A stretch of DNA of 64,000 nucleotides, from the NCBI GenBank assembly GCA_045595395.1, contig JAZOAH010000008.1:27857-91856 (forward strand). Direction: 5' to 3'. The DNA comes from Eubacteriales bacterium. Lineage in GTDB: Bacteria > Bacillota > Clostridia > Oscillospirales > UMGS1783. The translations under genes and the position numbers were made by a program. This document shows, one piece after another, positions 5,822 to 27,562 of this stretch. The notes beneath the pieces are model-generated. The model searched no databases, was not told the origin of the DNA, and saw only the letters and a list, made by a program, of their open reading frames with translations. Within the stretch, counting starts at the first letter, position 1. The number at the start of each line of letters is the position of its first letter.

Positions 5822-6193
5822 ATGGGAAAGTATTTAACCACTGAAGCACTTGGCAATATTCAGATATCGGATGATGTAATTACGGCCATTGTATCCTTGG
5901 CAGCATCTGAGATTGACGGCGTTGTGTCCATCGGAAGCAAGCCTTCAGCCGTTGACATTAAGGATATTATTGGCAAAAAGGGATTCGGCAAAAATGTTCG
6001 TGTTGACATTTCCGGCGGCATGATTACCATTGATGCCGATATCACCATTACGCACGGCAAGCCCATTGCCATGATTGCAGAAAAGGTTCAGGATGCTGTA
6101 AGAGATGCTGTTTCCGATGCAACCGGCCTAGCGGTAGGCAAGGTAAATGTACATGTATGCGGCATTGTTTTCCCCAAGCCCAAAGAAAAGTAA
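5822..6193 (+). CDS. Asp23/Gls24 family envelope stress protein (YqhY-like)
   Basis: GNIQISDDVITAIV, VQDAVRDAV..TGL.V.KVNVHV; lies upstream of nusB as usual. Confidence 0.9.
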   Translation: MGKYLTTEALGNIQISDDVITAIVSLAASEIDGVVSIGSKPSAVDIKDIIGKKGFGKNVRVDISGGMITIDADITITHGKPIAMIAEKVQDAVRDAVSDATGLAVGKVNVHVCGIVFPKPKEK

Positions 6194-10883: not shown

Positions 10884-11664
10884 TGTCCTTCTGTGTTCTA
10901 AGGGACTCGCAGATAGCCGTCAGAAGGCACAACAATACATTATGGCCGGTGAGGTTTATGTCAACGATGTCCGCATCGACAAGCCAGGCACCTCGGTCAG
11001 CGAAGATGCCCACATAGAGCATCGCGGCGCTGCTTGTCCATTTGTCAGCCGCGGCGGCTACAAACTGGACAAGGCCATGCGGTGTTTTCCTATTGATCTT
11101 ACTGGGAAAGACTGTATGGATATCGGCGCATCAACCGGAGGATTTACCGATTGCATGTTACAAAACGGCGCCAATCATGTATATTGTATCGATGTCGGCT
11201 ACGGGCAGTTGGCTTGGAAATTACGCAATGATCCGCGCATTACCAATTATGAGCGGACAAATGTCCGCGCCTTAACATCGGCCCAGGTCCCGCAGTTACT
11301 CGACTTTATCAGCATAGATGTTTCCTTTATATCTCTTACCCTGGTTCTACCTGTTGCCAAACAGTTTCTTAAGCCCGATGGCAGTATTGTTGCGCTGATC
11401 AAGCCGCAATTTGAAGCCGGGCGGCAACTGGTCGGCAAAAACGGCGTCGTTCGAGACCCAAAGGTACATCAGCAGGTTATTAAAAAAATACTTGCCTTCT
11501 GTCAAGAACAAGACTTTACCGTTTCCGGTCTATCGTTTTCACCGGTCAAAGGACCAAAAGGGAATATCGAATTTTTACTTTATCTGTCAAATGACAGCGC
11601 ATCTGTTGATGTTGCCGCTGTTGTAGATCAAGCACATCTTGAATTGGACGGTGAGCAGGAATGA
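10861..11664 (+). CDS. tlyA: TlyA family RNA methyltransferase
   Basis: S4 domain, VSRGGYKL, DIGASTGGFTD, LIKPQFE. Confidence 0.95.
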   Translation: MSTKQRLDVLLCSKGLADSRQKAQQYIMAGEVYVNDVRIDKPGTSVSEDAHIEHRGAACPFVSRGGYKLDKAMRCFPIDLTGKDCMDIGASTGGFTDCMLQNGANHVYCIDVGYGQLAWKLRNDPRITNYERTNVRALTSAQVPQLLDFISIDVSFISLTLVLPVAKQFLKPDGSIVALIKPQFEAGRQLVGKNGVVRDPKVHQQVIKKILAFCQEQDFTVSGLSFSPVKGPKGNIEFLLYLSNDSASVDVAAVVDQAHLELDGEQE

Positions 11665-16923: not shown

Positions 16924-17526
16924 GTGAAACTAAAGATCAAGAAAAGGCGATTATCCCGCTACCATATAAACTCTGACAATAGAATTGGACTATTTTTGAT
17001 CAGCTCTTTGTTTTTTGGCGTAATTGTCGGGAGTCTGGTCATTACATTTTCCAATGATGTGCATAGCGTCTTGATTGGATACGCACAGAGTATTAGTACG
17101 AGCACTCCGGCAGTCAATATTTTATTAAATAATTTCATTATCAGTTTTTTATTTTTTTCCACTTTGTTTTTGCTCGGCGTGTCAGTATACGGCTATGTTT
17201 TCATCCCCGTTCTTCCGTTCATGAAAGGGTTTTCCTACGGATTCTCCGCTTCATTTTTTTATGCCGTATTCGGTGCACGAGGTATACTTGTCTGTGCGCT
17301 TGGAATTCTTCCGCAATCCTTCATATTTTCTACAGCTTTACTGATAGGTGCATATCTGTCCTTCGTCAAATCTCGCTCGTTTCGACCACGTGCGACAGAT
17401 CATTCCACCCATAGCGGCAGCATGAAAAACTATTGCCTGTTCTTCCTGATTCTGTTTTTCATTTCTTTTTCAACAACACTATTTGATATTTTTGTCACGA
17501 AACATGTAATCAACTTATTTTGTTAG
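16924..17526 (+). CDS. spoIIM: Stage II sporulation protein M
   Basis: Five-TM protein, KGFSYGF, GILPQ motifs; upstream of xerD/ripX as in other Firmicutes; GTG start inferred. Confidence 0.8.
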   Translation: MKLKIKKRRLSRYHINSDNRIGLFLISSLFFGVIVGSLVITFSNDVHSVLIGYAQSISTSTPAVNILLNNFIISFLFFSTLFLLGVSVYGYVFIPVLPFMKGFSYGFSASFFYAVFGARGILVCALGILPQSFIFSTALLIGAYLSFVKSRSFRPRATDHSTHSGSMKNYCLFFLILFFISFSTTLFDIFVTKHVINLFC

Positions 17527-17535
17527 GATATTTAT

Positions 17536-18420
17536 ATGGAGAAGATTTTAACCGGATTTCTTACTTACATTAAGGAAGAAAAGAAAGCAACAGCAAATAC
17601 TTGCGCATCCTATCGCCGCGATCTGGATGCTTATTTTTCGTTTCTGATTATACACGGCAAAAGAGATCCGCTGATTGCATCAAAAGATACATTAAACGAT
17701 TATCTTAATAATCTTAAGGATGGCGGCAAATCAGGCAACACGATTGCTCGCAACCTTTCTTCCATACGTAGTTTCTATCAATACTTAATGATTCAAGGTA
17801 AAATAGAGGAAAACCCGGCTAAAAACATTAAATACCATATCGCAGACCGCAAATTACCGGATATTCTGACCGCAGAAGAAGTGAATTTACTTCTCGAACA
17901 GCCGCAATGCACCACACCAAAAGGGTTTCGCGATAAAGCGATGTTGGAGTTATTATATGCAACCGGCATGAAGGTCACAGAACTTGTTGATCTTGAGATT
18001 CATGATGTAAATATTCATCTTGGCGTCATTCACTGCACAGGCAGCACCGGAGGGCGCATCGTCCCCATGCATAAAACTGCTGCAAAAGCTCTTGAGGATT
18101 ACATGGCAAAAATTCGCCCGCTCATGGTGGATAATAAGGAAAATACCGCTCTTTTCGTTAACACAAATGGCGCACGGCTAACACGACAGGGCTTCTGGAA
18201 AATCATCAAAGCCTACGCACACAGCGCCGGTATACATAAGGACATTACCCCACAAACGATTCGCCATTCTTTTGCTTCACACCTATTAGAGAACGGGGCG
18301 GATATAAAGGCTATTCAGGAAATGCTGGGGCATACCGACATTTCCTCCACACAATTTTATGCAAAAATAATTAAAAACCGCTATAAGGATGTATACAATA
18401 AATTTCATCCCCGCGCATAG
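17536..18420 (+). CDS. xerD: XerD/RipX-family tyrosine recombinase with substituted catalytic residues
   Basis: LTRQGFWKIIK XerD signature, RHSFASHLLENGAD, LGH..ISSTQFY; but TGMKVTE (R to K), TPQTIRH (H to Q) and no GKGxKER lysine. Confidence 0.88.
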   Translation: MEKILTGFLTYIKEEKKATANTCASYRRDLDAYFSFLIIHGKRDPLIASKDTLNDYLNNLKDGGKSGNTIARNLSSIRSFYQYLMIQGKIEENPAKNIKYHIADRKLPDILTAEEVNLLLEQPQCTTPKGFRDKAMLELLYATGMKVTELVDLEIHDVNIHLGVIHCTGSTGGRIVPMHKTAAKALEDYMAKIRPLMVDNKENTALFVNTNGARLTRQGFWKIIKAYAHSAGIHKDITPQTIRHSFASHLLENGADIKAIQEMLGHTDISSTQFYAKIIKNRYKDVYNKFHPRA

Positions 18421-18422
18421 AA

Positions 18423-18447
18423 AAGCCGTGTCATTAAGACACGGCTT
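18423..18447. terminator. Hairpin terminator between the two convergent recombinase genes
   Basis: AAGCCGTGTC-attaa-GACACGGCTT. Confidence 0.75.
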
Positions 18448-18469
18448 ATGCAAATAAAAGGGGAGGGGA

Positions 18470-19450
18470 TTATTCTTCATTCTTACCAACCTTGATCTTA
18501 CCCAATGGATTAGCGTTCGCTGCTTCTTCCAACTGCGTTTTCCCAAGGTGCGTGTATATCTGCGTCGTACCAAGATTTTCATGGCCCAAAACCTCTTTGA
18601 GCACACGAATATCCACGCCATTTTGAAACATAAGCGTCGCTGCCGTATGGCGTAGTTTGTGCGTAGAAAACCGTTGCGGATCCAAGCCAGCCTTTTCAAT
18701 ATATTTTTTCACCAAGTTTTGGACCATCTGATGGCTGATTCTGGTCTTACGATTACTTAAAAATAGGGCCTTTTTATCAATAACGCCGTCAACTGGGCGT
18801 ACCCGCATGTAAATATGAATCGCTTCCTGACAGGCCTCATTTAGATAAACAACACGCTCTTTGCCGCCTTTTCCTAATACTCGCAAACGATTATCGTGTA
18901 TATCGGTTAAATTGATACCAACTAATTCCGATAATCGTATTCCGGTATTTAAAAAAACCACAAGAATCGCATAATCGCGCTGACGGTTTTTTCCGTCAAC
19001 GGCAGCCAGCAGACGCAGGCATTCATCATATTCCAAATGCACCGGCAAGTTCCGTCTAGGCTTTGGAAGATCGAGATCGGCCACAGGATTAAAATCCAAC
19101 AATCCGGCTTTTACCGTTAAATACTTATAGAAGCTTCGCAACGTTGATGCTTTGCGAGCCCTGGTACGACTACGATTATTACGATCATTTGCAAGGTAAA
19201 TAAAGAACTCATAAATATCAGAAACAGTAATGGATTTAATCAGATCAATATCAACGGTGCTGATATCAATTTCTTCAAACGGAACAGAATCCGGACATAA
19301 GTTTTTTGATAAAAGTATATAACGAAAAAATGTACGTAAGTCCAGATAATATTCATCAACCGTTTTTGTTGATTTGCCTCGAATTGTCTGTGCGTGAACC
19401 AGAAACTCACGAATTGGCCCAGAAACATCAGAAAATCGGTATTTTGTCAT
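18470..19450 (-). CDS. xerC: Xer-family tyrosine recombinase (clostridial XerC-type), catalytically intact
   Basis: TGIRLSEL (R), GKGGKER (K), HKLRH (HxxR), LGHEN (H), TQIYTH (Y); GAGGGG RBS at 19458-19463. The symbol is a family label; orthology to E. coli XerC is not shown. Confidence 0.85.
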   Translation of the reverse strand: MTKYRFSDVSGPIREFLVHAQTIRGKSTKTVDEYYLDLRTFFRYILLSKNLCPDSVPFEEIDISTVDIDLIKSITVSDIYEFFIYLANDRNNRSRTRARKASTLRSFYKYLTVKAGLLDFNPVADLDLPKPRRNLPVHLEYDECLRLLAAVDGKNRQRDYAILVVFLNTGIRLSELVGINLTDIHDNRLRVLGKGGKERVVYLNEACQEAIHIYMRVRPVDGVIDKKALFLSNRKTRISHQMVQNLVKKYIEKAGLDPQRFSTHKLRHTAATLMFQNGVDIRVLKEVLGHENLGTTQIYTHLGKTQLEEAANANPLGKIKVGKNEE

Positions 19451-19466
19451 TTTTCTTCCCCTCTAA

Positions 19467-19494
19467 ATTGAACAAAATATTCATTTTGTTTAAT
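19467..19494 (+). other. attL: symmetric dif-like recombination site (11-6-11)
   Basis: ATTGAACAAAA-TATTCA-TTTTGTTTAAT; arms are inverted repeats (extend to 13 bp, 19465-19496, one mismatch); each arm matches the E. coli XerD arm TTATGTTAAAT at 9/11. Confidence 0.85.
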
Positions 19495-19496
19495 TT
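19478..19496 (+). repeat. Left 19-bp att core direct repeat
   Basis: TATTCATTTTGTTTAATTT, identical to 25113-25131. Confidence 0.95.
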
Positions 19497-19510
19497 AAGG
19501 GGGGATTTTT

Positions 19511-19600
19511 TTGTCTGTTTTAGAATGGCTTTTGTTCATGTCCGTTTCCCTGCAAGTGCTCCAATTTTTATTTTTTCTAAAGGATAGGTATCTAAAATGA
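19511..19600 (+). CDS. Prophage 29-aa hydrophobic peptide (not in ORF track)
   Basis: TTG start after AAGGGGGGA; MSVLEWLLFMSVSLQVLQFLFFLKDRYLK; ATGA overlap with the next ORF. Confidence 0.55.
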   Translation: MSVLEWLLFMSVSLQVLQFLFFLKDRYLK

Positions 19601-19782
19601 ATGAAATTAAAAATGTTAAGTTTCGTTTGAAATCTGAAATGCCCAAGTTGTCTACTGATGCCGTGCAAGAGTTTGAAGATGCTTTTTGGCGTCTTGTAGA
19701 TATGTATGGCATACCCGAGGCCTGCAATAAAACTTTGTCTATTGTTGAAGATCTTCTTGATGAGATCATGAACCATGAGTAA
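19597..19782 (+). CDS. Prophage hypothetical protein, 61 aa
   Basis: RBS-like AAGGATAGGT; part of the chain of overlapping ORFs. Confidence 0.65.
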   Translation: MNEIKNVKFRLKSEMPKLSTDAVQEFEDAFWRLVDMYGIPEACNKTLSIVEDLLDEIMNHE

Positions 19783-19942
19783 TGATGTGTATGCCGTGAA
19801 CGGCTTTTATTGGGCTTTAGATTCCCTTTGCCGTTATCATGCCGGTAATAATGATGTCATTACTACAATTCGTGCACTAGATGAAGTGCGTGAGACTCTG
19901 CTTAAAGATGCAGAATATAAAACAAATAATGAGGTGAAATAA
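19775..19942 (+). CDS. Prophage hypothetical protein, 55 aa (not in ORF track)
   Basis: MSNDVYAVNGFYWALDSLCRYHAGNNDVITTIRALDEVRETLLKDAEYKTNNEVK; overlaps both neighbours (8 nt, TAATG). Confidence 0.6.
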   Translation: MSNDVYAVNGFYWALDSLCRYHAGNNDVITTIRALDEVRETLLKDAEYKTNNEVK

Positions 19943-20055
19943 TGTATCGTTCTACTGCTCCCCGTGGTGATCACCACGTTTTCCGCCGTACTGCCGCCAG
20001 TACCAAGCGCATCAATGTGAATCCAGGTAATTATCGTGGAGGTATCCGTCTGTGA
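19942..20055 (+). CDS. Microvirus DNA-binding/packaging protein VP8 (J-like), 37 aa (not in ORF track)
   Basis: MYRSTAPRGDHHVFRRTAASTKRINVNPGNYRGGIRL with the FRRTA..K.IN..RGGIRL hallmark; GAGGTG RBS. Confidence 0.9.
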   Translation: MYRSTAPRGDHHVFRRTAASTKRINVNPGNYRGGIRL

Positions 20056-20219
20056 GTGATAAATTTCTAAAAATTTTGATGGATGCTCGGTTATTTCTTC
20101 TGGAAATCTTAAATGAGGTTGAGGATGCCGATGATCTCGGCTATATGTGCCGCAATCTTAAAACTTTACTATCTGAACATGAACTGCTCAGTATTTACAA
20201 AAAGGAGTGTCAAGAATGA
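20052..20219 (+). CDS. Prophage hypothetical protein, 55 aa (not in ORF track)
   Basis: GTG start 8 nt after GGAGGT; MSDKFLKILMDARLFLLEILNEVEDADDLGYMCRNLKTLLSEHELLSIYKKECQE; GTGA and ATGA overlaps. Confidence 0.6.
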   Translation: MSDKFLKILMDARLFLLEILNEVEDADDLGYMCRNLKTLLSEHELLSIYKKECQE

Positions 20220-20551
20220 AACAGCGCTTATATTCGATTTATGATATGCGTTCCAAAACCTATGGAATCCCTTTCGTTGCAGTAAACGACGACATTGCCA
20301 AGCGCACTGTGGCGTCGACTTTGCTCAGTGTCCCCCCTACCCATCTGATGTTTGCCTTTGCATCCGACTATGAATTATATTATCTTGGTGAGGTGATGGA
20401 AAATGGTAGTTTGGCTACGGCTGAAACTGGCGCTCAAGCAATTACTTTCCTTAGTGATATCCTTCAAGTATACAAAGTGAATGAAAAAAGAGAGGTGATT
20501 TTGAATGATGTTCGCATGCAGAACGAGCCGCAGAGAGACCACGCCGAGTAA
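20216..20551 (+). CDS. Microvirus nonstructural protein VP5 (C-like)
   Basis: LYSIYD....YGIPF....DD.A.R...DYELYYLGE...G pattern; AAAGGAG RBS favours ATG 20216. Confidence 0.85.
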   Translation: MKQRLYSIYDMRSKTYGIPFVAVNDDIAKRTVASTLLSVPPTHLMFAFASDYELYYLGEVMENGSLATAETGAQAITFLSDILQVYKVNEKREVILNDVRMQNEPQRDHAE

Positions 20552-20984
20552 GTCCGGCTCTCCTACTGCCCCTATTTTCGTTAAAGCCTTTGATGAAAAT
20601 GGTGAGCCTTATCTCGCTGAAAAAGGTGTTAAAAATATTTACGATATCATTCAGTCTTATCATGATGATACTCGTATCGAGAGCATTGTATCTCGTTATG
20701 AGCAAGGTGATAAGTCTGTCCTTGGCAAGCTGCAGGGCTTTTATGCAGATATGACTGCCCAGGCTAAAACGCTCCAAGAGGCTGAAAATGCTATGATCAA
20801 AGTAAAATCCTTGTATGATCGTATGCCTACTGCTGTGAAACATAAATTTCCTGATGTAAATTCTTTCATTGGCGCTATTGGTACTGATGATCTGAAACAG
20901 ATGCTCACGCCGGCGAAGGACACGGACAAGCCCAGTGAAGTTAAAGAAACGGTAAAGGAGAAGGTAGATAATGTTACAGCGTAA
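20505..20984 (+). CDS. Microvirus internal scaffolding protein VP3 (B-like)
   Basis: IQSYHDDTRIESIVSRYEQGD...GFYADMT...LQEAEN...YDRMPTAVKHKF pattern; directly upstream of VP1. Confidence 0.85.
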   Translation: MMFACRTSRRETTPSKSGSPTAPIFVKAFDENGEPYLAEKGVKNIYDIIQSYHDDTRIESIVSRYEQGDKSVLGKLQGFYADMTAQAKTLQEAENAMIKVKSLYDRMPTAVKHKFPDVNSFIGAIGTDDLKQMLTPAKDTDKPSEVKETVKEKVDNVTA

Positions 20985-22791
20985 TGTAAATAGCCGTTTT
21001 GCACAAAATCCCACCCTTGAAAATCAACGCTCCCGTTTTGATCGAAATAATACTTATAAGACCACTTTTAATGCTGGTGATCTCATTCCCATTTATGTTG
21101 ATTCAGATATTCTTCCCGGCGATACGGTAACTATGGATACTGCGTCTGTTGTCCGCATGTCCACCCCGATTTACCCGGTCATGGATAATGCTAATATCGA
21201 CATTTTTTGGTTCTTCGTCCCCCATCGTATTGTATGGGATGATTTTGAACACTTTATGACTGGCGGGCTCGATGCCGGCGAATGGGATGCCCCGACCGTA
21301 TATGAGCCGCCTATGGTGCGCCCTCGAACTTTTTCCTATCCTTCCGGTCAGTTTGAATACAAAGGTTATCCATCTAAAACTTTAGCGGACTATATGGGTA
21401 TTCCTTGTGGTTTTTCTGCACCTGGTGATGAGCGTGCTTTTAATACGGATATTGCCGAAGGTGTTTCTGCTCTTCCTTTCCGTGCGTATGCTAAGATCTG
21501 GAACGATTGGTTTCGGTCATCGTCGATTCAACCGGAAATTCTTATTCCGACCACTAGTGGTTTTTCTTGGCAACCCATATTTTATGTGAATGATGGCGCT
21601 CCTGTAGATGGATATAAGCAATTATATTCTTATGGTGATCATGCTAATGTTCTTGTAAAAAATGAAGGCACGACCGTTTATGGCGGTGCTTTGCTTAAGG
21701 CCAACAAATATCATGACTTTTTCACCAGCGCTCTTATCGAGCCTCAGCGTGGTGAGCCTGTCGGTGTTCCGCTTGAAGGTGCTTTGCCTGTTGTTACTAC
21801 TGGTGTTAATACATGGCATATTCCGCTGGATACTCCTCCGCTTATGTTTGCTAAACAGGACAAGGCCATGTCTGGCACATATGAAGAGGTAGGTTTTTTA
21901 CAGACAGTTGGGCCTGACAATGTTTATGCTTCGCCTGGTTCTGTATCTGCTGGTCAGGAAAATCTTAACGGTTATTGGTTAAATCCTGTTAATCTTGTTG
22001 CTGATACTTCGGTAAGCAATACATTGCAGATTTCCATTAACGATCTTCGTCATGCTATGGCTGTTCAGCACATTCTCGAACTTGACGCTCGTTCCGGATC
22101 CGGACGATATATTGACCTTTTGAAAGGTCATTTCGGTGTCACCTCTCCTGATGCTCGCCTTCAGCGTGCTGAGTATCTTGGCGGTGCCTCGATTCCCATT
22201 AACATTACTCCGGTAGCGCAGACCTCGCAGACGAGTGATGTGTCCCCTCAGGGTAATGTTGCGGCATACTCTTGGACTAGTGATGTGTCCAGTTCTTTTA
22301 CTAAGTCTTTTGTTGAGCATGGTACTTTGATGTGTCTTGCCGTTGTTCGTCATGTCAGATCTTATCAGCAAGGCCTTCACAAGATGTGGTCACGGCCGAC
22401 CCGCTACGATCACTATTGGCCGTCTTTGGCTAATATATCTGAACAGGCTATCCTCAACAAGGAGATCTTTGTTTCCGGTGATCCGGAAATAGATAACCAG
22501 GTTTTTGGATATCAAGAGGCCTTTGCCGAGTATCGTTATAAGCCTAGTATTGTTACTGGCGCTATGCGTTCCTCTTATCCGCAGCCGTTGGACGCTTGGC
22601 ATTATGCTGACTATTATACCGGCACGCCGCATCTGTCCTCTGAATGGTTGCAGGAAGGTAGTGAAGAAATTGACCGCACACTTGCAGTTTCTTCGGCTGT
22701 TGAAGATCAGTTTATCGGTGACTTTGCGTTCAACTCCCAGTGGTACCGTGTAATGCCGATGTATTCGATCCCTGGCCTCGATCGCATGTAA
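20971..22791 (+). CDS. Microvirus major capsid protein VP1 (F-like), 606 aa
   Basis: RSRFDR..TYKTTFNAGDLIP, PGDT, PVMDN, FFVPHRIVW, LPFRAY..IWNDWFR, DARLQRAEYLGG, FGYQEAFAEYRYKPS, MPMYSIPGL. Confidence 0.98.
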   Translation: MLQRNVNSRFAQNPTLENQRSRFDRNNTYKTTFNAGDLIPIYVDSDILPGDTVTMDTASVVRMSTPIYPVMDNANIDIFWFFVPHRIVWDDFEHFMTGGLDAGEWDAPTVYEPPMVRPRTFSYPSGQFEYKGYPSKTLADYMGIPCGFSAPGDERAFNTDIAEGVSALPFRAYAKIWNDWFRSSSIQPEILIPTTSGFSWQPIFYVNDGAPVDGYKQLYSYGDHANVLVKNEGTTVYGGALLKANKYHDFFTSALIEPQRGEPVGVPLEGALPVVTTGVNTWHIPLDTPPLMFAKQDKAMSGTYEEVGFLQTVGPDNVYASPGSVSAGQENLNGYWLNPVNLVADTSVSNTLQISINDLRHAMAVQHILELDARSGSGRYIDLLKGHFGVTSPDARLQRAEYLGGASIPINITPVAQTSQTSDVSPQGNVAAYSWTSDVSSSFTKSFVEHGTLMCLAVVRHVRSYQQGLHKMWSRPTRYDHYWPSLANISEQAILNKEIFVSGDPEIDNQVFGYQEAFAEYRYKPSIVTGAMRSSYPQPLDAWHYADYYTGTPHLSSEWLQEGSEEIDRTLAVSSAVEDQFIGDFAFNSQWYRVMPMYSIPGLDRM

Positions 22792-22805
22792 GCCTATCCC
22801 GTCCA

Positions 22806-22850
22806 TTGCCCGGTATGCCCTCGTGACCTCTGCCGGGCACAATTTTTATT
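22806..22850 (+). terminator. Stem-loop after VP1 (candidate weak terminator)
   Basis: TGCCCGGTA-N15-TGCCGGGCA then CAATTTTTATT. Confidence 0.45.
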
Positions 22851-22860
22851 GAGGTGTATT

Positions 22861-23013
22861 ATGAATCAGATCCAATTAGAAAGTGTTTTAGATGCTATTG
22901 AGCATAAACTAGATATTCTTTTCGATTCCTGTACTGGTGTTCAGTTGTTTGATATTTATGGTTACCTTCGTGATGAATCAGATCGTTTTCTAAAAAAGTA
23001 TATTGATGCATAA
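22861..23013 (+). CDS. Prophage hypothetical protein, 50 aa (not in ORF track)
   Basis: GAGGTG RBS; MNQIQLESVLDAIEHKLDILFDSCTGVQLFDIYGYLRDESDRFLKKYIDA; stop overlaps the VP2 RBS (TAAGGAG). Confidence 0.65.
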   Translation: MNQIQLESVLDAIEHKLDILFDSCTGVQLFDIYGYLRDESDRFLKKYIDA

Positions 23014-23024
23014 GGAGTGATTTT

Positions 23025-23711
23025 ATGCTTGCTCAACATGCCGGTGGTGGTTTTGCCGCAGGTAATTCCGCTAGTAATATTCTTAATGGAAAAACTAACG
23101 GTAATACTCTTGTCGGTGCTTTTGATGCGTATGCGCAAGATTTTGCATTAAGTAGTGGTAATTATATTGCCCCGCTTATAAATGGTCTTTATGACTCTAT
23201 TTTGAGTGCTGAGCAGACCAGTGCAAATAAGCAGATGGCATTTCAGCGAGAGCAGAATGAACTTGCTATGTCTTATAATTCTTCTGAGGCGCAGAAAGCG
23301 CGTGATTTTAATGCTGAACAAGCCGCAATTAATCGTCAATTTCAGCAAACTAGTGCTGATAAGCAGATGGCGTTTCAGGAGCGTATGAGTAATACTCAGT
23401 ATCAGCGTGCTGTTGAGGATCTGAAGAAAGCCGGATTGAATCCTATTCTTGCCGCAGGTGCTAGCGCATCTTCCCCGGCTGGATCCTCGGCCTCCGGCTC
23501 TTCGGCCTCCGGTGCGTCTTCCGCAATTTCTGCAATGTCGGGATCTAAGGCTAATGCCTCCGGTGCTGGTTCCTCTGCTGTTTCTGCTTTTAATGCTCTA
23601 CTTGGATTTATTGGTAATCAATCGGAAATGTATAATTCCGGCATGCAAGGTCTTACTGGTCTTGCCAATCGTGCATTTTCTCTTTTAGGTGTTAATGCAA
23701 AACGCCGTTGA
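23025..23711 (+). CDS. Microvirus DNA pilot protein VP2 (H-like), 228 aa
   Basis: FQERMSNTQYQRAVEDLKKAGLNPILA motif, 11-residue coiled-coil repeats, Ser/Ala/Gly-rich tail. Confidence 0.93.
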   Translation: MLAQHAGGGFAAGNSASNILNGKTNGNTLVGAFDAYAQDFALSSGNYIAPLINGLYDSILSAEQTSANKQMAFQREQNELAMSYNSSEAQKARDFNAEQAAINRQFQQTSADKQMAFQERMSNTQYQRAVEDLKKAGLNPILAAGASASSPAGSSASGSSASGASSAISAMSGSKANASGAGSSAVSAFNALLGFIGNQSEMYNSGMQGLTGLANRAFSLLGVNAKRR

Positions 23712-23843
23712 TTATCCATATACTTCTTGTAGTGTTTCAAGGAACATTTGCATTGCTTTGAATCTACTCGTATAGTCAAGTAATATGATTACTAAAACTA
23801 TAACGGTTATTGCAAGTATTGCTATGGTGATATTTTTCCACAT
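23712..23843 (-). CDS. Prophage antisense 43-aa single-TM protein (not in ORF track)
   Basis: MWKNITIAILAITVIVLVIILLDYTSRFKAMQMFLETLQEVYG; GAAAGGA RBS 8 nt upstream; stop abuts the VP2 stop exactly. Confidence 0.7.
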   Translation of the reverse strand: MWKNITIAILAITVIVLVIILLDYTSRFKAMQMFLETLQEVYG

Positions 23844-23866
23844 GGTCCCTTTCCTTTCTATTCAGC

Positions 23867-23875
23867 ATTGTAGCA
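23867..23875 (-). promoter_or_regulatory. Extended -10 promoter candidate for the antisense gene
   Basis: TGcTACAAT on the minus strand, placing the start of transcription near 23860 just ahead of the RBS; no good -35. Confidence 0.5.
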
Positions 23876-23960
23876 ATTTTTATTTGACAAGCTGTACAGT
23901 TCCCGAGCCGAAAGCCGCCTTGCGGCGAACCCGGCACCGTCCAGTTGTAATTGACGGATG

Positions 23961-23997
23961 CTCAGCCCCATTACCCTCTTGATGTAATGGGGCTGAG
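23961..23997 (+). other. Viral-strand rolling-circle origin hairpin
   Basis: Perfect 14-bp stem CTCAGCCCCATTAC/GTAATGGGGCTGAG with loop CCTCTTGAT, matching the phiX174 nick core CTTG^AT; just upstream of rep. Confidence 0.85.
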
Positions 23998-24028
23998 TGA
24001 CACAATTTACAGAAAAGAGGTGATAATT

Positions 24029-25105
24029 GTGTCTTGTGATTGTCCTAATATTGGTATCTTTAAGCGTGGCCTAGATGGTAAACGTGAACTTGTGAAAATG
24101 TTTCAGTATGTACCGGATAAGATGATTGATAATTACTACAAAGATTATTGTAATCTCTTTGCCGATAAATCCGATACTGAGATAAAATACCAAAAGACCG
24201 CTGATGGATACCATGAAATTATGCTTTTGCCTTGTGGTAAGTGTATAGGTTGTCGGTTAGAGTATTCTCGTCAATGGGCGATGCGTTGTACTCTTGAGGC
24301 TCTACAGCATGAGTGCAATTATTTTGTTACCCTCACTTATGATGACCTTTCTGTCCCTACAAACCCCTACAAGTTGTGTTGTGATCCTGATACTGGCCTT
24401 GTTACACATGATGGTCATTCTCATCCCCTTGTTCCGGATGATCTGAAGAAATTTATTAAGGACTTGCGCCGTCATTATGAGTATCATTATAACCATAAAG
24501 GTATTAGGTTTTTCGCTTGTGGTGAGTATGGCGGTAAGACCGCACGCCCTCATTTCCATATCATACTGTTTAATTGCCCAATTTTAGACCTAGAACTTTA
24601 CAAGAGGAATTTTCAAGGAAAGCCTTACTTTAATTCAAAAACATTTGACAAGATATGGAATAAAGGTTATACTGTTATTGCAGAGTGTTGTTTTGATACT
24701 TGCGCCTATGTTGCCCGGTATATCATGAAAAAGCAGACCGGACAAAACAGGGTTATTTATGACAATCTCGATGTAACTCCTGAATTTACTCGCATGTCAA
24801 GAAAGCCCGGCATAGGCCGAACTTATTTTGATGAAAATCTAGATAAGATCTACACCTATGATCAAGTTACCTTGCTAGGTGCAGATGGTAAAGCATTACA
24901 GCCCTGCCCGCCTAAATACTTTGATAAGATTTATGCGGAACTCGAGCCTGACCACTTTGAAGAGGTCAAGCAAAAACGGCTTGTTAATCAAGCCAAAGTA
25001 GAAAGGAGTCGTGAATATCAAACAGGTTTATCCAAGGCAACTCATATCCACATGCAAACGCACGAGCGTGATCGTGCAATTCTCGCTCTAAAACGGCAGA
25101 ATTAG
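24029..25105 (+). CDS. Microvirus replication initiator VP4 (HUH endonuclease, A-like), 358 aa
   Basis: PCGKCIGCRL, FVTLTY (motif I), RPHFHIILF (HUH), YVARYIMKK (motif III, two Tyr), MSRKPGIG; GTG start after GAGGTG gives MSCDCP. Confidence 0.96.
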   Translation: MSCDCPNIGIFKRGLDGKRELVKMFQYVPDKMIDNYYKDYCNLFADKSDTEIKYQKTADGYHEIMLLPCGKCIGCRLEYSRQWAMRCTLEALQHECNYFVTLTYDDLSVPTNPYKLCCDPDTGLVTHDGHSHPLVPDDLKKFIKDLRRHYEYHYNHKGIRFFACGEYGGKTARPHFHIILFNCPILDLELYKRNFQGKPYFNSKTFDKIWNKGYTVIAECCFDTCAYVARYIMKKQTGQNRVIYDNLDVTPEFTRMSRKPGIGRTYFDENLDKIYTYDQVTLLGADGKALQPCPPKYFDKIYAELEPDHFEEVKQKRLVNQAKVERSREYQTGLSKATHIHMQTHERDRAILALKRQN

Positions 25106-25129
25106 AGAATAGTATTCATTTTGTTTAAT
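25102..25129 (+). other. attR: hybrid dif-like site with degenerate phage arm
   Basis: TTAGAGAATAG-TATTCA-TTTTGTTTAAT; the left arm matches the host arm at only 5/11 and contains the VP4 stop codon. Confidence 0.8.
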
Positions 25130-25131
25130 TT
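25113..25131 (+). repeat. Right 19-bp att core direct repeat
   Basis: TATTCATTTTGTTTAATTT, identical to 19478-19496. Confidence 0.95.
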
Positions 25132-25156
25132 TATCATAAAATATAACTATTGTCAA
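25128..25156 (-). promoter_or_regulatory. Sigma-A promoter, inferred native promoter of the recombinase gene, now facing antisense into VP4
   Basis: TTGACA (25156-25151)-N17-TAAAAT (25133-25128) with extended TG; the -10 box overlaps the att repeat. Confidence 0.8.
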
Positions 25157-25203
25157 TATCTTTTATCCCCCAAACAAAATACGATACTTAGGAGAAAAAA
25201 CTC

Positions 25204-26118
25204 ATGTGGAATGAATTAGTTATTACGATTGCCGCAAAAAACTGCGATTTGGCCGCAAATATTTTAACGGTTTTGAATCATGATGGTATGTTTATTGAAG
25301 ATTTTTCTGATCTCATGGAAAATGACGCAGTGAAACAAACCAATCTTGTTGAGCAAGAATTATTAGATAAAATCTACAATGATCCCATCATCCACCTCTA
25401 CATCTCCCCTAATCAAAATCTAGCGGAAATGACACAATCCGCTCAGTCGTTATTGGATCAAAACCAAATTGAATATCATCTTGACGTAAAAGAAATTCCT
25501 GACAAAAACTGGAACGAAGAATGGATGAAATATTATAAGCCGGTGCATATCAATGACCGTTTAACCATTGTTCCTCGCTGGTTAAATTATAAGCCACAGA
25601 CGGACGAGTTGACGGTTTTATTAGATCCGGGCGCAGCCTTTGGAACCGGCACCCATGAAACAACAAAACTTTGCTTGGATGCATTAACCCGATACGTAAA
25701 AAATAATGACCGCATCCTCGATGTCGGTACAGGAAGCGGCATTTTAGCGATCACCTCTCTCCTTCTTGGCGCTAAATCAGCCGACGCTATTGATATTGAC
25801 CCTCTCTCCGTTAAGGCAGCCGGCGAAAACGCCAGATTAAACCATGTTCACGAGAAATTAAGCGTAAAGCTTGGTAGCTTGCTTGATGAAGCAACCGGGC
25901 ACTATCAGGTCATAACTGCCAATATTGTGGCCGACGTTATCATCTCCATGCTATCCGATCTAAAGCAACACATGAATACCGAAAGTACACTGATCCTCTC
26001 CGGCATCATTCGTGAGCGCGCACAAGATGTTCTAGATGCACTCAGCAAACATTCCTATCGTATAAAAGAGCATTTGCAAGACGGTGAATGGGTTGCATTT
26101 GTCGTAAGTATACAATAA
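25204..26118 (+). CDS. prmA: Ribosomal protein L11 methyltransferase
   Basis: WMKYYKP, DPGAAFGTGTHETT, LDVGTGSGILAI, ILSGII. Confidence 0.96.
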   Translation: MWNELVITIAAKNCDLAANILTVLNHDGMFIEDFSDLMENDAVKQTNLVEQELLDKIYNDPIIHLYISPNQNLAEMTQSAQSLLDQNQIEYHLDVKEIPDKNWNEEWMKYYKPVHINDRLTIVPRWLNYKPQTDELTVLLDPGAAFGTGTHETTKLCLDALTRYVKNNDRILDVGTGSGILAITSLLLGAKSADAIDIDPLSVKAAGENARLNHVHEKLSVKLGSLLDEATGHYQVITANIVADVIISMLSDLKQHMNTESTLILSGIIRERAQDVLDALSKHSYRIKEHLQDGEWVAFVVSIQ

Positions 26119-26155
26119 GAAAAGCAGAGTTAACATGGTTAACTCTGCTTTTCTT
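26117..26155. terminator. Bidirectional terminator
   Basis: AAGAAAAGCAGAGTTAAC-atg-GTTAACTCTGCTTTTCTT. Confidence 0.88.
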
Positions 26156-27562
26156 TTATGCCTCTTTCAAAAAACATTCTATGGCTCGATGAGTCATATA
26201 CACATCAAGTTTGCTAACAACCTCATATGGCGCATGCATAGATAACACACCAACACCGAGATCAACAACATCAATATCCATAGCTGCAACATATTTAGCC
26301 ACGGTGCCGCCACCGCCGGCATCAACCTTGCCCAGTTCGCCAGTCTGCCATATGACCTGATTATCATCAAGTATCTTGCGAATCTCACCCAGAAATTCAG
26401 CATTGGCATCATTGGTATCATACTTACCACCAGATCCGGAATATTTCATGATGATAGTACCATAATTGAGTTTGGTCGTATTGCGTTTTTCATATACATC
26501 CGGATAATTCGGATCAAAGGCCGCATTCACATCCGCCGACAAACACTTAGAATGGCGCATGCATTCACGCACATTCGCTCCGCTCCCGTTACACAATTCG
26601 GTGATAAAATTCTTCAAATAGTCAGCCTTAAGTCCGGTATTGCCGGATGATCCGATCTCTTCCCTGTCGGTCAGGACACCGATCACGGTCTTACCTTCCC
26701 CATCATTGGCCAACATGCCCGTCAAAACAGGATAAGCACAAACATGATCATCATGGCCGTAGGATCCAATCATAGAGCGGTCAAAGCCAACATCCTGAGC
26801 CTTATAGGCAGGCACCACACAAAGATCCGCCGACAGGAAATCCTCTTCTATGATATCGTATTTCTCATACAGCAGATTGAGAATGTTTAGTTTAACCTTT
26901 TCCGATGCCTTATCATCACGGAACGGGCAACTGCCGATCAGCACATTGAGCGCTTCTCCGACAATGGCTTCGGCTAACGGCTTGGTATTTTGTGCCTTAG
27001 ACAGGTGCGGCAACAAATCCGTCACGCAAAAAACCGGCTCATCCTCCTGCTCGCCCAGACAAACATTAACGACCGTGCCGTCCTTCTTGGCCACAACACC
27101 ATGCAAAGCAAGCGGTATTGCCGTCCATTGATATTTCTTGATACCACCATAATAATGCGTCTTAAACAGACACAGTTCGCTGTCCTCATATACGGGCGCC
27201 GGTTTCAGATCCAACCGCGGACTATCAATATGGGCAGCCGCAATATTAACGCCCTGGCTCATGGGCGTCTTGCCAATGACAGCAAATACAATAGAGCGAG
27301 ATCGGTTATTATAATATACTTTATCTCCCGCACGATAGGTATCCCCAAAACGAAATGGTTTATAGCCTTCTTTTTCAAGCACTTGTTGCACATATGTCAC
27401 ACATTCACGCTCTGTCTTGCCTACATTCAGAAAATTCTTGTATTCTACACAATAATCAAAGGCTTCCTCCGCTTGAGCATCCGTAATGCGTTCATAGCCA
27501 TTCTTGGGACTATAAAACAACTTTTCGCAAAGCTGCTCCCCTGCTGTTTTTTCTACATTCAT
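26156..27562 (-). CDS. M18 family aminopeptidase
   Basis: AHIDSPRLDLK, YYGGIKKYQW, GHDD, DREEIGS, LSMHAPYE. Confidence 0.93.
   Translation of the reverse strand: MNVEKTAGEQLCEKLFYSPKNGYERITDAQAEEAFDYCVEYKNFLNVGKTERECVTYVQQVLEKEGYKPFRFGDTYRAGDKVYYNNRSRSIVFAVIGKTPMSQGVNIAAAHIDSPRLDLKPAPVYEDSELCLFKTHYYGGIKKYQWTAIPLALHGVVAKKDGTVVNVCLGEQEDEPVFCVTDLLPHLSKAQNTKPLAEAIVGEALNVLIGSCPFRDDKASEKVKLNILNLLYEKYDIIEEDFLSADLCVVPAYKAQDVGFDRSMIGSYGHDDHVCAYPVLTGMLANDGEGKTVIGVLTDREEIGSSGNTGLKADYLKNFITELCNGSGANVRECMRHSKCLSADVNAAFDPNYPDVYEKRNTTKLNYGTIIMKYSGSGGKYDTNDANAEFLGEIRKILDDNQVIWQTGELGKVDAGGGGTVAKYVAAMDIDVVDLGVGVLSMHAPYEVVSKLDVYMTHRAIECFLKEA

Follow-up and report, generated by a model that had tools for sequence, protein, structure and literature searches.

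Rewired promoters at a gokushovirus-type prophage integrated at a host dif-like site: predicted antisense transcription into rep and its probable place among other effects of integration

How does a microvirus prophage that carries no integrase, and in which no repressor can be recognised, stay quiet in the chromosome of its host? In the available portion of PMC7062461, which deals with such prophages, this is left unexplained. The question is raised again by a stretch of 64,000 nucleotides (nt) from a Eubacteriales bacterium (contig JAZOAH010000008.1). This whole 64-kb stretch is termed the window, and all coordinates are positions within it. It holds a gokushovirus-type Microviridae prophage between a host xerC-like recombinase gene and prmA. 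A sequence-only reading of the right junction had proposed that a host promoter, displaced by the integration, fires antisense into the phage rep gene (VP4) and silences Rep only in the integrated state. The antisense arrangement is considered here, with moderate confidence, to be real but secondary, a by-product of the phage having integrated at a dif that also serves as promoter and leader of the xerC-like gene. The larger effects would be the loss of the xerC promoter and the splitting of the phage genes from their own promoter. The features on which the argument turns are the following.

17536-18420, plus strand: host XerD gene (NCBIfam TIGR02225 equivalog, 338.2 bits against a cut-off of 329.6; Pfam Phage_integrase and SAM-like domain)
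18470-19450, minus strand: host xerC-like tyrosine recombinase gene (Pfam PF00589; best NCBIfam model XerC with 222.8 bits, below the cut-off of 335)
19465-19496, no strand: attL, a perfect dif-like palindrome of 14-nt arm, ATTC and 14-nt arm (direct repeat D4 and inverted repeat I4)
19497-25131, all genes on the plus strand: gokushovirus-type Microviridae prophage of ~5.6 kb (Pfam, PHROG)
24029-25105, plus strand: VP4 (rep), the rolling-circle replication initiator (REP_ORF2-G2P PF23343, 1.9e-17; phrog_942, 8.7e-99)
25100-25131, no strand: attR, a hybrid site (repeat D4)
25128-25156, minus strand: predicted native promoter of the xerC-like gene, with -35 TTGACA (25156-25151), a 17-nt spacer and an extended -10, TG-n-TAAAAT (25136-25128)
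25204-26118, plus strand: host prmA (Pfam PrmA, 7.8e-84)

The host promoter at the right junction

The promoter at attR scores 11/12 and has an extended -10 in addition, which makes it the best promoter match between 18000 and 27000. Its -10 hexamer, TAAAAT, occupies 25133-25128 on the minus strand, and the start is predicted ~7 nt after it, at ~25121, inside the right dif arm. From this start to the stop codon of VP4 (TAG, 25103-25105) there are 16 nt, with nothing between. The promoter stands tail-to-tail with rep, and both its -10 and its start overlap the Xer-binding arm. The sequence-only reading had placed a promoter at attR, with a start near 25121, reading into the 3' end of VP4 and overlapping the Xer arm, and its coordinates and description proved correct in each of these respects. 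The strict pattern TTGACA-N16-18-TANAAT occurs three times in the window against 0.14 expected, and none of 100 shuffles reached three. Sites of at least 9/12 between 18000 and 27000 are at chance level (20 found, 22.8 expected), and seven sites in the whole window reach 11/12.

The site at which the phage has integrated has the marks of a chromosomal dif. The prophage is bounded by a 32-nt direct repeat (family D4), attR being 81% identical to attL. The left part of attL is host DNA, and its right arm is common to host and phage. At attR, the right arm and the centre are intact, and the left arm, which is degenerate and phage-derived, overlaps the stop codon of VP4. The full palindrome has one copy in the 1.43-Mb, 94%-complete assembly, and the 14-nt arm is found at attL and attR only. 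The XerD and xerC-like genes that adjoin it are convergent. Along the 114-kb contig, the guanine-cytosine (GC) skew shifts from weakly positive to strongly negative between ~14 and 26 kb of the window, within ~10 kb of the site. Over positions -27855 to 86000, the two sides of the site differ strongly in skew, with values of about +0.01 to +0.05 to its left and -0.1 to -0.2 to its right. With its uniqueness, the nearby flip of the skew, the adjoining XerD and xerC-like genes and its presence in relatives, the palindrome behaves like the dif of the host chromosome, as judged from these sequence features. The prophage, similarly judged, fits a gokushovirus-type dif-integrating mobile element (IMEX) without an integrase, lying between one complete and one hybrid dif-like site. 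Its integration would depend on the host Xer recombinases.

The native place of the promoter can be read from relatives. The xerC-like protein was searched in 40 relatives and in the window's own genome, with a match in all 41, and the DNA upstream of the orthologue was read in 19 loci. All five same-genus loci (L002-L006, Xer identity 91-66%), as well as L008 (62%), have an empty site. Their order is xerC-like gene, ribosome-binding site, dif palindrome, a -10 ending 3 nt into the outer arm, a 17-nt spacer, TTGACA and then prmA. The promoters at empty sites score 11/12 with the TG in L002-L005, 12/12 in L006 and L008, and 10/12 in L018. The synteny of dif and prmA extends to L009 besides these six loci, and the distance from the end of dif to the xer start codon is 13-22 nt in the same loci and in L018. 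In an alignment of seven sequences (A2), the columns of the outer arm (the right arm of attR), the -10 and the -35 (TGTCAA) are invariant, and the spacer is variable. Because the register is kept in L002-L006 and L008 and these columns do not vary, the predicted promoter would natively drive the xerC-like gene across dif, with a leader of ~36 nt. The element at attR is, on this comparison, the predicted native sigma-A-type promoter of the host xerC-like gene, starting inside dif. The earlier claim that it is host DNA displaced by the integration is upheld, as the same register is seen at the empty sites. A further six loci (L007, L009, L011, L014, L017 and L020) have a dif-like palindrome, but a promoter in that register was not found (7-8/12). 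In L010, L012, L013, L015, L016 and L019, the patterns used detected no palindrome within 450 nt upstream.

Some other observations concern the geometry of this site. In L003-L005, only ~25-40 nt lie between the dif arm and the ribosome-binding site of prmA, so that the prmA promoter and dif must share sequence. The window has a TAAAAT on the plus strand at 25137-25142, and this hexamer makes up a near-palindrome together with the minus-strand -10 (25114-25149 region). This layout suggests that two divergent promoters share their core sequence with the Xer site. In the more distant L014 and L017, it is the TTGACA that overlaps the dif arm nearest the xer gene, and not the -10 that lies over the far arm. 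In these two loci, a xer promoter would again be set within dif, though in another arrangement. A predicted xer promoter and transcription start inside the gene's own dif implies autoregulation by Xer. Nothing relevant to Xer autoregulation, or to an overlap of a xer promoter with dif, was found in the literature searched, including the available portions of PMC2965235 and PMC9765430. In the former, the accessible text has the word 'promoter' once, for a pBAD plasmid, and lacks 'autoregul'.

Phage promoter, left junction and antisense path

The integration affects not only the right junction. A phage promoter-like site faces the host promoter from inside rep, a composite hairpin is formed at attL, and weak hairpins lie on the path of the antisense transcript.

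24645-24673, plus strand: phage promoter-like site inside rep (TTGACA, 17 nt, TATACT; 11/12)
19458-19511, plus strand: composite hairpin and T7 run at attL (folds of -25.6 and -26.3 kcal/mol, then U7)
24995-24977, minus strand: weak terminator-like hairpin, a 6-pair stem (24995-24978) and then GTTTTTG, 144 nt from the start (-7.2 to -8.7 kcal/mol)
ending at 24805, minus strand: second weak terminator-like site, 317 nt from the start (-8.8 kcal/mol)

The site at 24645 matches the consensus as well as the host promoter does (11/12 each). The two are convergent across the last ~440 bp of rep, with predicted starts ~440 bp apart. Between 19497 and 25160 there are two sites of at least 11/12, against a mean of 0.15 in 300 first-order Markov simulations, of which two reached this number. 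The terminator scan gave no plus-strand terminator-like site between 24680 and prmA. In the circular phage, transcription from the 24645 promoter would cross the attachment site and enter the small open reading frames (ORFs) and the structural genes. In the prophage, it would run out into prmA, and these phage genes are located at the far left. No site of at least 9/12 was found ahead of the first phage ORF in the prophage.

Besides the present prophage, four other microvirus prophages were scanned for such a site: L046, L047 and L048, which are from Clostridia assemblies, and L049, which is from a Gastranaerophilales assembly. The present prophage, L046 and L048 have their strongest sense-strand promoter-like site at 220-560 nt from the right end. 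In L046, an 11/12 promoter-like site followed by a 70-amino-acid ORF lies at 11411-11630, between VP4 and attR. This ORF has a sub-threshold match to a ribbon-helix-helix domain (RHH_1, E = 0.0035, 17.7 bits against 20.5). The contig of L048 begins within a dif-like arm (1-11) that is repeated at 6058-6068, the arm being of the type found in the window's order. Since the contig begins in an arm that recurs 6 kb further on, the assembly probably broke at the attL of a microvirus prophage.

At the left junction, host CCCCTC, which is the complement of the xerC ribosome-binding site, and the phage G-run extend the palindrome to a composite stem of ~21 pairs. The rebuilt attB folds at -9.8, the rebuilt attP at -14.7 (in another shape) and attR at -9.6 kcal/mol, and the composite hairpin is absent from both attB and attP. 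From the folding models, it looks like a terminator of the integrated state only, by which transcripts entering from the host DNA on the left would be stopped. Read on the minus strand, the composite stem has a folding energy of -17.7 kcal/mol and includes the GGGG of the xerC ribosome-binding site among its paired bases, against just -3.7 kcal/mol for the native xerC leader, which starts inside the arm. The xerC-like gene itself is intact and has kept the perfect dif, and its native promoter is now 5.6 kb away. What stands at attL in place of the promoter is a 7/12 remnant (AAAACA, 17 nt, TTAAAT). A replacement xerC promoter at attL was rejected as a candidate, the best match being 7/12 and lacking the A at position 2 of the -10.

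It had also been stated that no terminator lies between the displaced promoter and rep. This holds over the 16 nt from the start to the VP4 stop codon; further on, inside VP4, the two weak minus-strand hairpins listed above are met. The first of them (24995-24978) is present in the minimum-energy fold of the first 172 nt of the antisense RNA, and this leader is more stable than shuffled sequences (z = -2.61), one in 200 of which folded as well. A minus-strand scan from 25121 to 19440 gave eight terminator-like sites, all between -6.7 and -8.8 kcal/mol; therefore, no strong intrinsic terminator stands on the minus strand of the prophage. Terminator-like sites as weak as these are about as frequent as expected by chance (8 found, 7.5 expected). 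No match to the Rho model was above the cut-off in the 94%-complete, 1.43-Mb genome, the best reaching 39.5 bits against 509. The two best Rho matches (39.5 and 27.4 bits) are neighbours on contig C21 and fall in open frames of ~500 amino acids. With Rho not found above the cut-off, long antisense read-through is possible. The predicted antisense RNA could be a ~150-nt species over the last ~44 codons of rep, or a longer read-through. The ribosome-binding site of rep (~24020) is ~1.1 kb downstream of ~25121, and the antisense overlap starts at the 3' end of rep and misses the 5' leader unless there is read-through.

Phage genes, relatives and the weighing of the readings

The remaining genes of the prophage, all upstream of VP4, are given below.

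19597-20219, plus strand: four small ORFs (ORF list)
20207-20551, plus strand: VP5 (Pfam Phage_ORF5)
20505-20984, plus strand: VP3, scaffold (Pfam Chlamy_scaf)
20971-22791, plus strand: VP1, capsid (Pfam Phage_F, 8e-146)
23025-23711, plus strand: VP2, pilot protein (PHROG)

The gene order is, therefore, four small ORFs, VP5, VP3, VP1, VP2 and VP4, and by Pfam and PHROG the Microviridae gene set is complete (capsid F/VP1, scaffold VP3, VP5, pilot VP2 and Rep VP4). In the translation of VP4, HFH and YVARY motifs were recognised by eye. ORFs of at least 30 amino acids were listed for 19497-25131, and among the main genes and the short ORFs scanned with Pfam and PHROG no integrase or recombinase gene was found. 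In the 317-nt gap ahead of VP4, there is a perfect 14-bp inverted repeat with a 9-nt loop and no T-run after it (23961-23997), which could be the phage origin or some other structural signal. A short hydrophobic frame with a TTG start was seen by eye at 19511-19599, behind the phage G-run and T-run and before the first annotated phage ORF. The Rfam scan of 17000-27000 returned no family except a chance microRNA match at 26096-26172.

The earlier observation that no repressor-like gene is recognisable in the prophage holds. Neither the four small ORFs at 19597-20219 nor the other short ORFs gave a significant Pfam or PHROG match, one 37-amino-acid basic ORF matched weakly a PHROG of unknown function, and the protein atlas offered nothing usable for the two small ORFs looked up. 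A novel small regulator could still be present among these ORFs.

Close relatives of the phage are few. The VP4 search of the genome-contig and viral-contig collections gave no match. Among 400 other genomes from the order, none had VP4 at E <= 1e-10, and Phage_F was absent from all 398 other genomes of the class that could be scored, two more giving no score. Microvirus prophages are rare in the genomes sampled. Among the INPHARED phage records, VP4 is at most 46% identical, and the DNA is 67-71% identical over at most 18% of its length. The 19-nt word of the attachment site occurs at 24 loci in IMG/VR, none of which encodes VP1 or VP4. With VP1, five loci were obtained from genome contigs (34-46% identical, none on a xer promoter) and five from metagenome contigs (all at most 45% identical). 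Closer prophages are P0002 (75% VP1 identity, 325-kb contig) and P0005 (65%, 61-kb contig), which are known here from their proteins alone. The nearest prophage relatives of the phage are in Clostridia assemblies. As none of the related prophages sits on a xer promoter, they say nothing on the recurrence of the layout.

The account preferred here would run as follows. An integrase-less gokushovirus-type microvirus would have recombined with the host dif by means of the dif-like site that it carries immediately behind the rep stop codon. In the uninterrupted chromosome, the predicted -10 overlaps the outer dif arm, and transcription would start in dif and run ~36 nt to the gene. After integration, the displaced promoter would still fire, giving antisense RNA over at least the last ~135 nt of rep, partly stopped at the weak hairpins. 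Its RNA polymerases would collide with those from the 24645 phage site, which start ~440 bp away. The collision would damp the transcription that leaves the 3' part of rep toward prmA, and it may trim the rep mRNA. Such convergent transcription would be a by-product of the integration position and not the main lysogeny switch. At the same time, the xerC-like gene probably loses its promoter, which would lower both Xer and excision. The phage gene block is probably cut off from the one phage promoter-like site that comes near the consensus, a site located shortly before the phage attachment site. The composite hairpin with its U7 run at attL would shield this gene block from host read-in. The loss of the xerC promoter and the separation of the phage promoter are at least as likely to matter as the antisense RNA; by themselves they could explain a quiet, stable prophage, with no antisense effect on rep.

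Several points weigh against this account. A promoter-like match does not prove activity, and the firing of both promoters is predicted. Xer bound on the intact attR arm could keep the displaced promoter shut, and the xerC-like gene may have another, unrecognised promoter. The 24645 site lies in a coding sequence and may be an accident of codon choice. Two of the five prophages scanned (L047 and L049) are without a strong sense promoter near the right end, and the right-end promoter of L046 appears to serve the small ribbon-helix-helix-like gene. Furthermore, the layout is a single case, no second prophage having been obtained at the same xerC-dif-promoter site.

A stronger role for the antisense RNA was also considered. 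Taken in its strong form, the sequence-only reading would make antisense or convergent transcription the principal, selected silencer of Rep in the integrated state, replacing a repressor and tuned by Xer at the attR arm. The near-consensus promoter with an extended -10 lies 16 nt from the rep stop codon, the phage attachment site is placed directly on that stop codon, and the -10 and start overlap the Xer arm, all of which would suit such a device. No repressor-like gene was recognised, and in the available part of PMC7062461 the words 'repressor' and 'antisense' do not occur. As the minus-strand terminators are all weak and Rho is not above the cut-off, the antisense RNA could cover all of rep. 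Nevertheless, the overlap begins at the 3' end of the gene, and a transcript would have to run ~1.09 kb, past two weak hairpins, to arrive at the 5' end. Of the two possible orientations, one has been seen, and that once only, which gives selection no statistical support. The small ORFs could still encode a regulator, relatives may carry regulators of their own, as the sub-threshold ribbon-helix-helix-like ORF of L046 indicates, and a quiet prophage is to be expected already from the phage genes being cut off from their promoter. A principal silencing role is, on balance, unlikely. At the other extreme, the promoter may be a neutral leftover, largely shut by Xer on the attR arm, as perhaps it is natively, or giving a short transcript that ends at the first hairpin without effect. 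As 4 nt of the -10 and the start itself fall within the arm, a bound recombinase would occlude RNA polymerase; the hairpin with its U-run 144 nt downstream and the stable fold of the 172-nt leader (z = -2.61) point the same way. However, with its degenerate left arm, attR should support weaker cooperative binding than a full dif, and a lower expression of xerC after integration should lower the occupancy. The hairpin, too, is weak (-7 to -9 kcal/mol), and such sites are at chance frequency. A neutral leftover is likewise unlikely.

The displaced promoter might also continue to serve the xerC-like gene, by antisense read-through of 5.7 kb across the whole prophage, with silencing of the phage genes on the way. 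This would be favoured by the lack of a strong minus-strand terminator between 25121 and 19450, with Rho not above the cut-off, and by the lack of a good replacement promoter at attL. Against it, eight weak terminator-like sites lie on the way, the G-run-extended palindrome pairs with the xerC ribosome-binding site (-17.7 kcal/mol) and a long untranslated RNA is unlikely to be stable, which together leave such read-through very improbable. A bolder proposal joins the separate effects into one, so that a repressor-less single-stranded DNA phage would achieve lysogeny purely by the topology of its junctions, with half-host, half-phage parts and four effects at once, all reversed by excision. In this joint form, the Xer-autoregulated xerC promoter would become antisense to rep and to the outward promoter of the phage, the phage genes would be cut from the phage promoter, and a composite terminator would be built at attL. 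Lastly, xerC would be left without a promoter and with its ribosome-binding site buried in the read-through RNA, and the low Xer level would lock the prophage in and derepress the antisense promoter. That all of this holds jointly is rather improbable. The by-product account, in which the loss of the xerC promoter and the separation of the phage genes would do more than the antisense RNA, is the one preferred here.

Comparison with known systems

The locus offers a concrete layout in which integration itself would rewire three promoters and create a terminator. A xer gene with its predicted promoter and start inside its own dif is a host feature without description in the literature searched, and any element using this dif would disturb Xer expression. 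If the by-product account alone holds, the locus is an instructive example and brings no new mechanism.

The closest known elements are the enterogokushovirus prophages such as EC6098, which integrate at the dif of E. coli via XerC/XerD (Kirchberger and Ochman 2020, PMC7062461). According to the available part of that source, their gene order is VP4-VP5-VP3-VP1-VP2-VP8, and the lysogens keep excising, re-integrating and releasing phage (PMC7062461). The prophage described here resembles this type in being an integrase-less gokushovirus with a dif-like motif, in targeting the host dif and in having dif-like flanking repeats; the accessible text describes no repressor there. In the EC6098 type, the phage dif motif lies ahead of VP4, as judged from the gene order and the detection primers given in that part of the text, whereas here it overlaps the VP4 stop codon. 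The host also differs, as it has a small genome and its dif lies on the promoter and leader of the xerC-like gene. It is because of this position of the host dif that integration displaces a promoter. The VP4 protein, too, stands apart, with at most 46% identity to any phage record searched.

On the host side, the arrangement is similar to XerS/difSL of streptococci and lactococci, in which, as far as the available text of the sources goes, the xer gene is immediately preceded by dif (Nolivos et al. 2010, PMC2965235; PMC2731167). However, the recombinase here fails the XerS model (NF003462, 149.7 bits against a cut-off of 267), and an XerD equivalog adjoins it. The Xer pair is, from these model scores, probably a two-recombinase system.

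In the rolling-circle plasmids pT181 and pMV158, rep is controlled by countertranscripts that the plasmids themselves encode and that act on the 5' leader or the ribosome-binding site. The predicted antisense RNA is likewise directed against the gene of a rolling-circle initiator. Unlike in the plasmids, its promoter is host DNA that would become effective only after integration, and it meets the 3' end of rep. Countertranscript control in these plasmids may be regarded, by analogy, as the nearest functional counterpart. The coupling of expression to circularisation is known from Tn916. In the Bacteroides phage BV01, the available text suggests that integration displaces a host promoter (10.1101/2020.04.06.028910). 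In both, integration or excision changes which promoter is joined to which gene, but neither involves Xer/dif or a microvirus, so that the parallel is conceptual only. The predicted hosts of microvirus prophages named in the accessible part of PMC9753089 are Bacteroidales, Hyphomicrobiales and Enterobacteriaceae, Clostridia not being among them there. Thus, dif-integrating gokushovirus prophages as such are already known, and what is new at this locus is the motif on the VP4 stop codon, the different host and a dif that bears a promoter.

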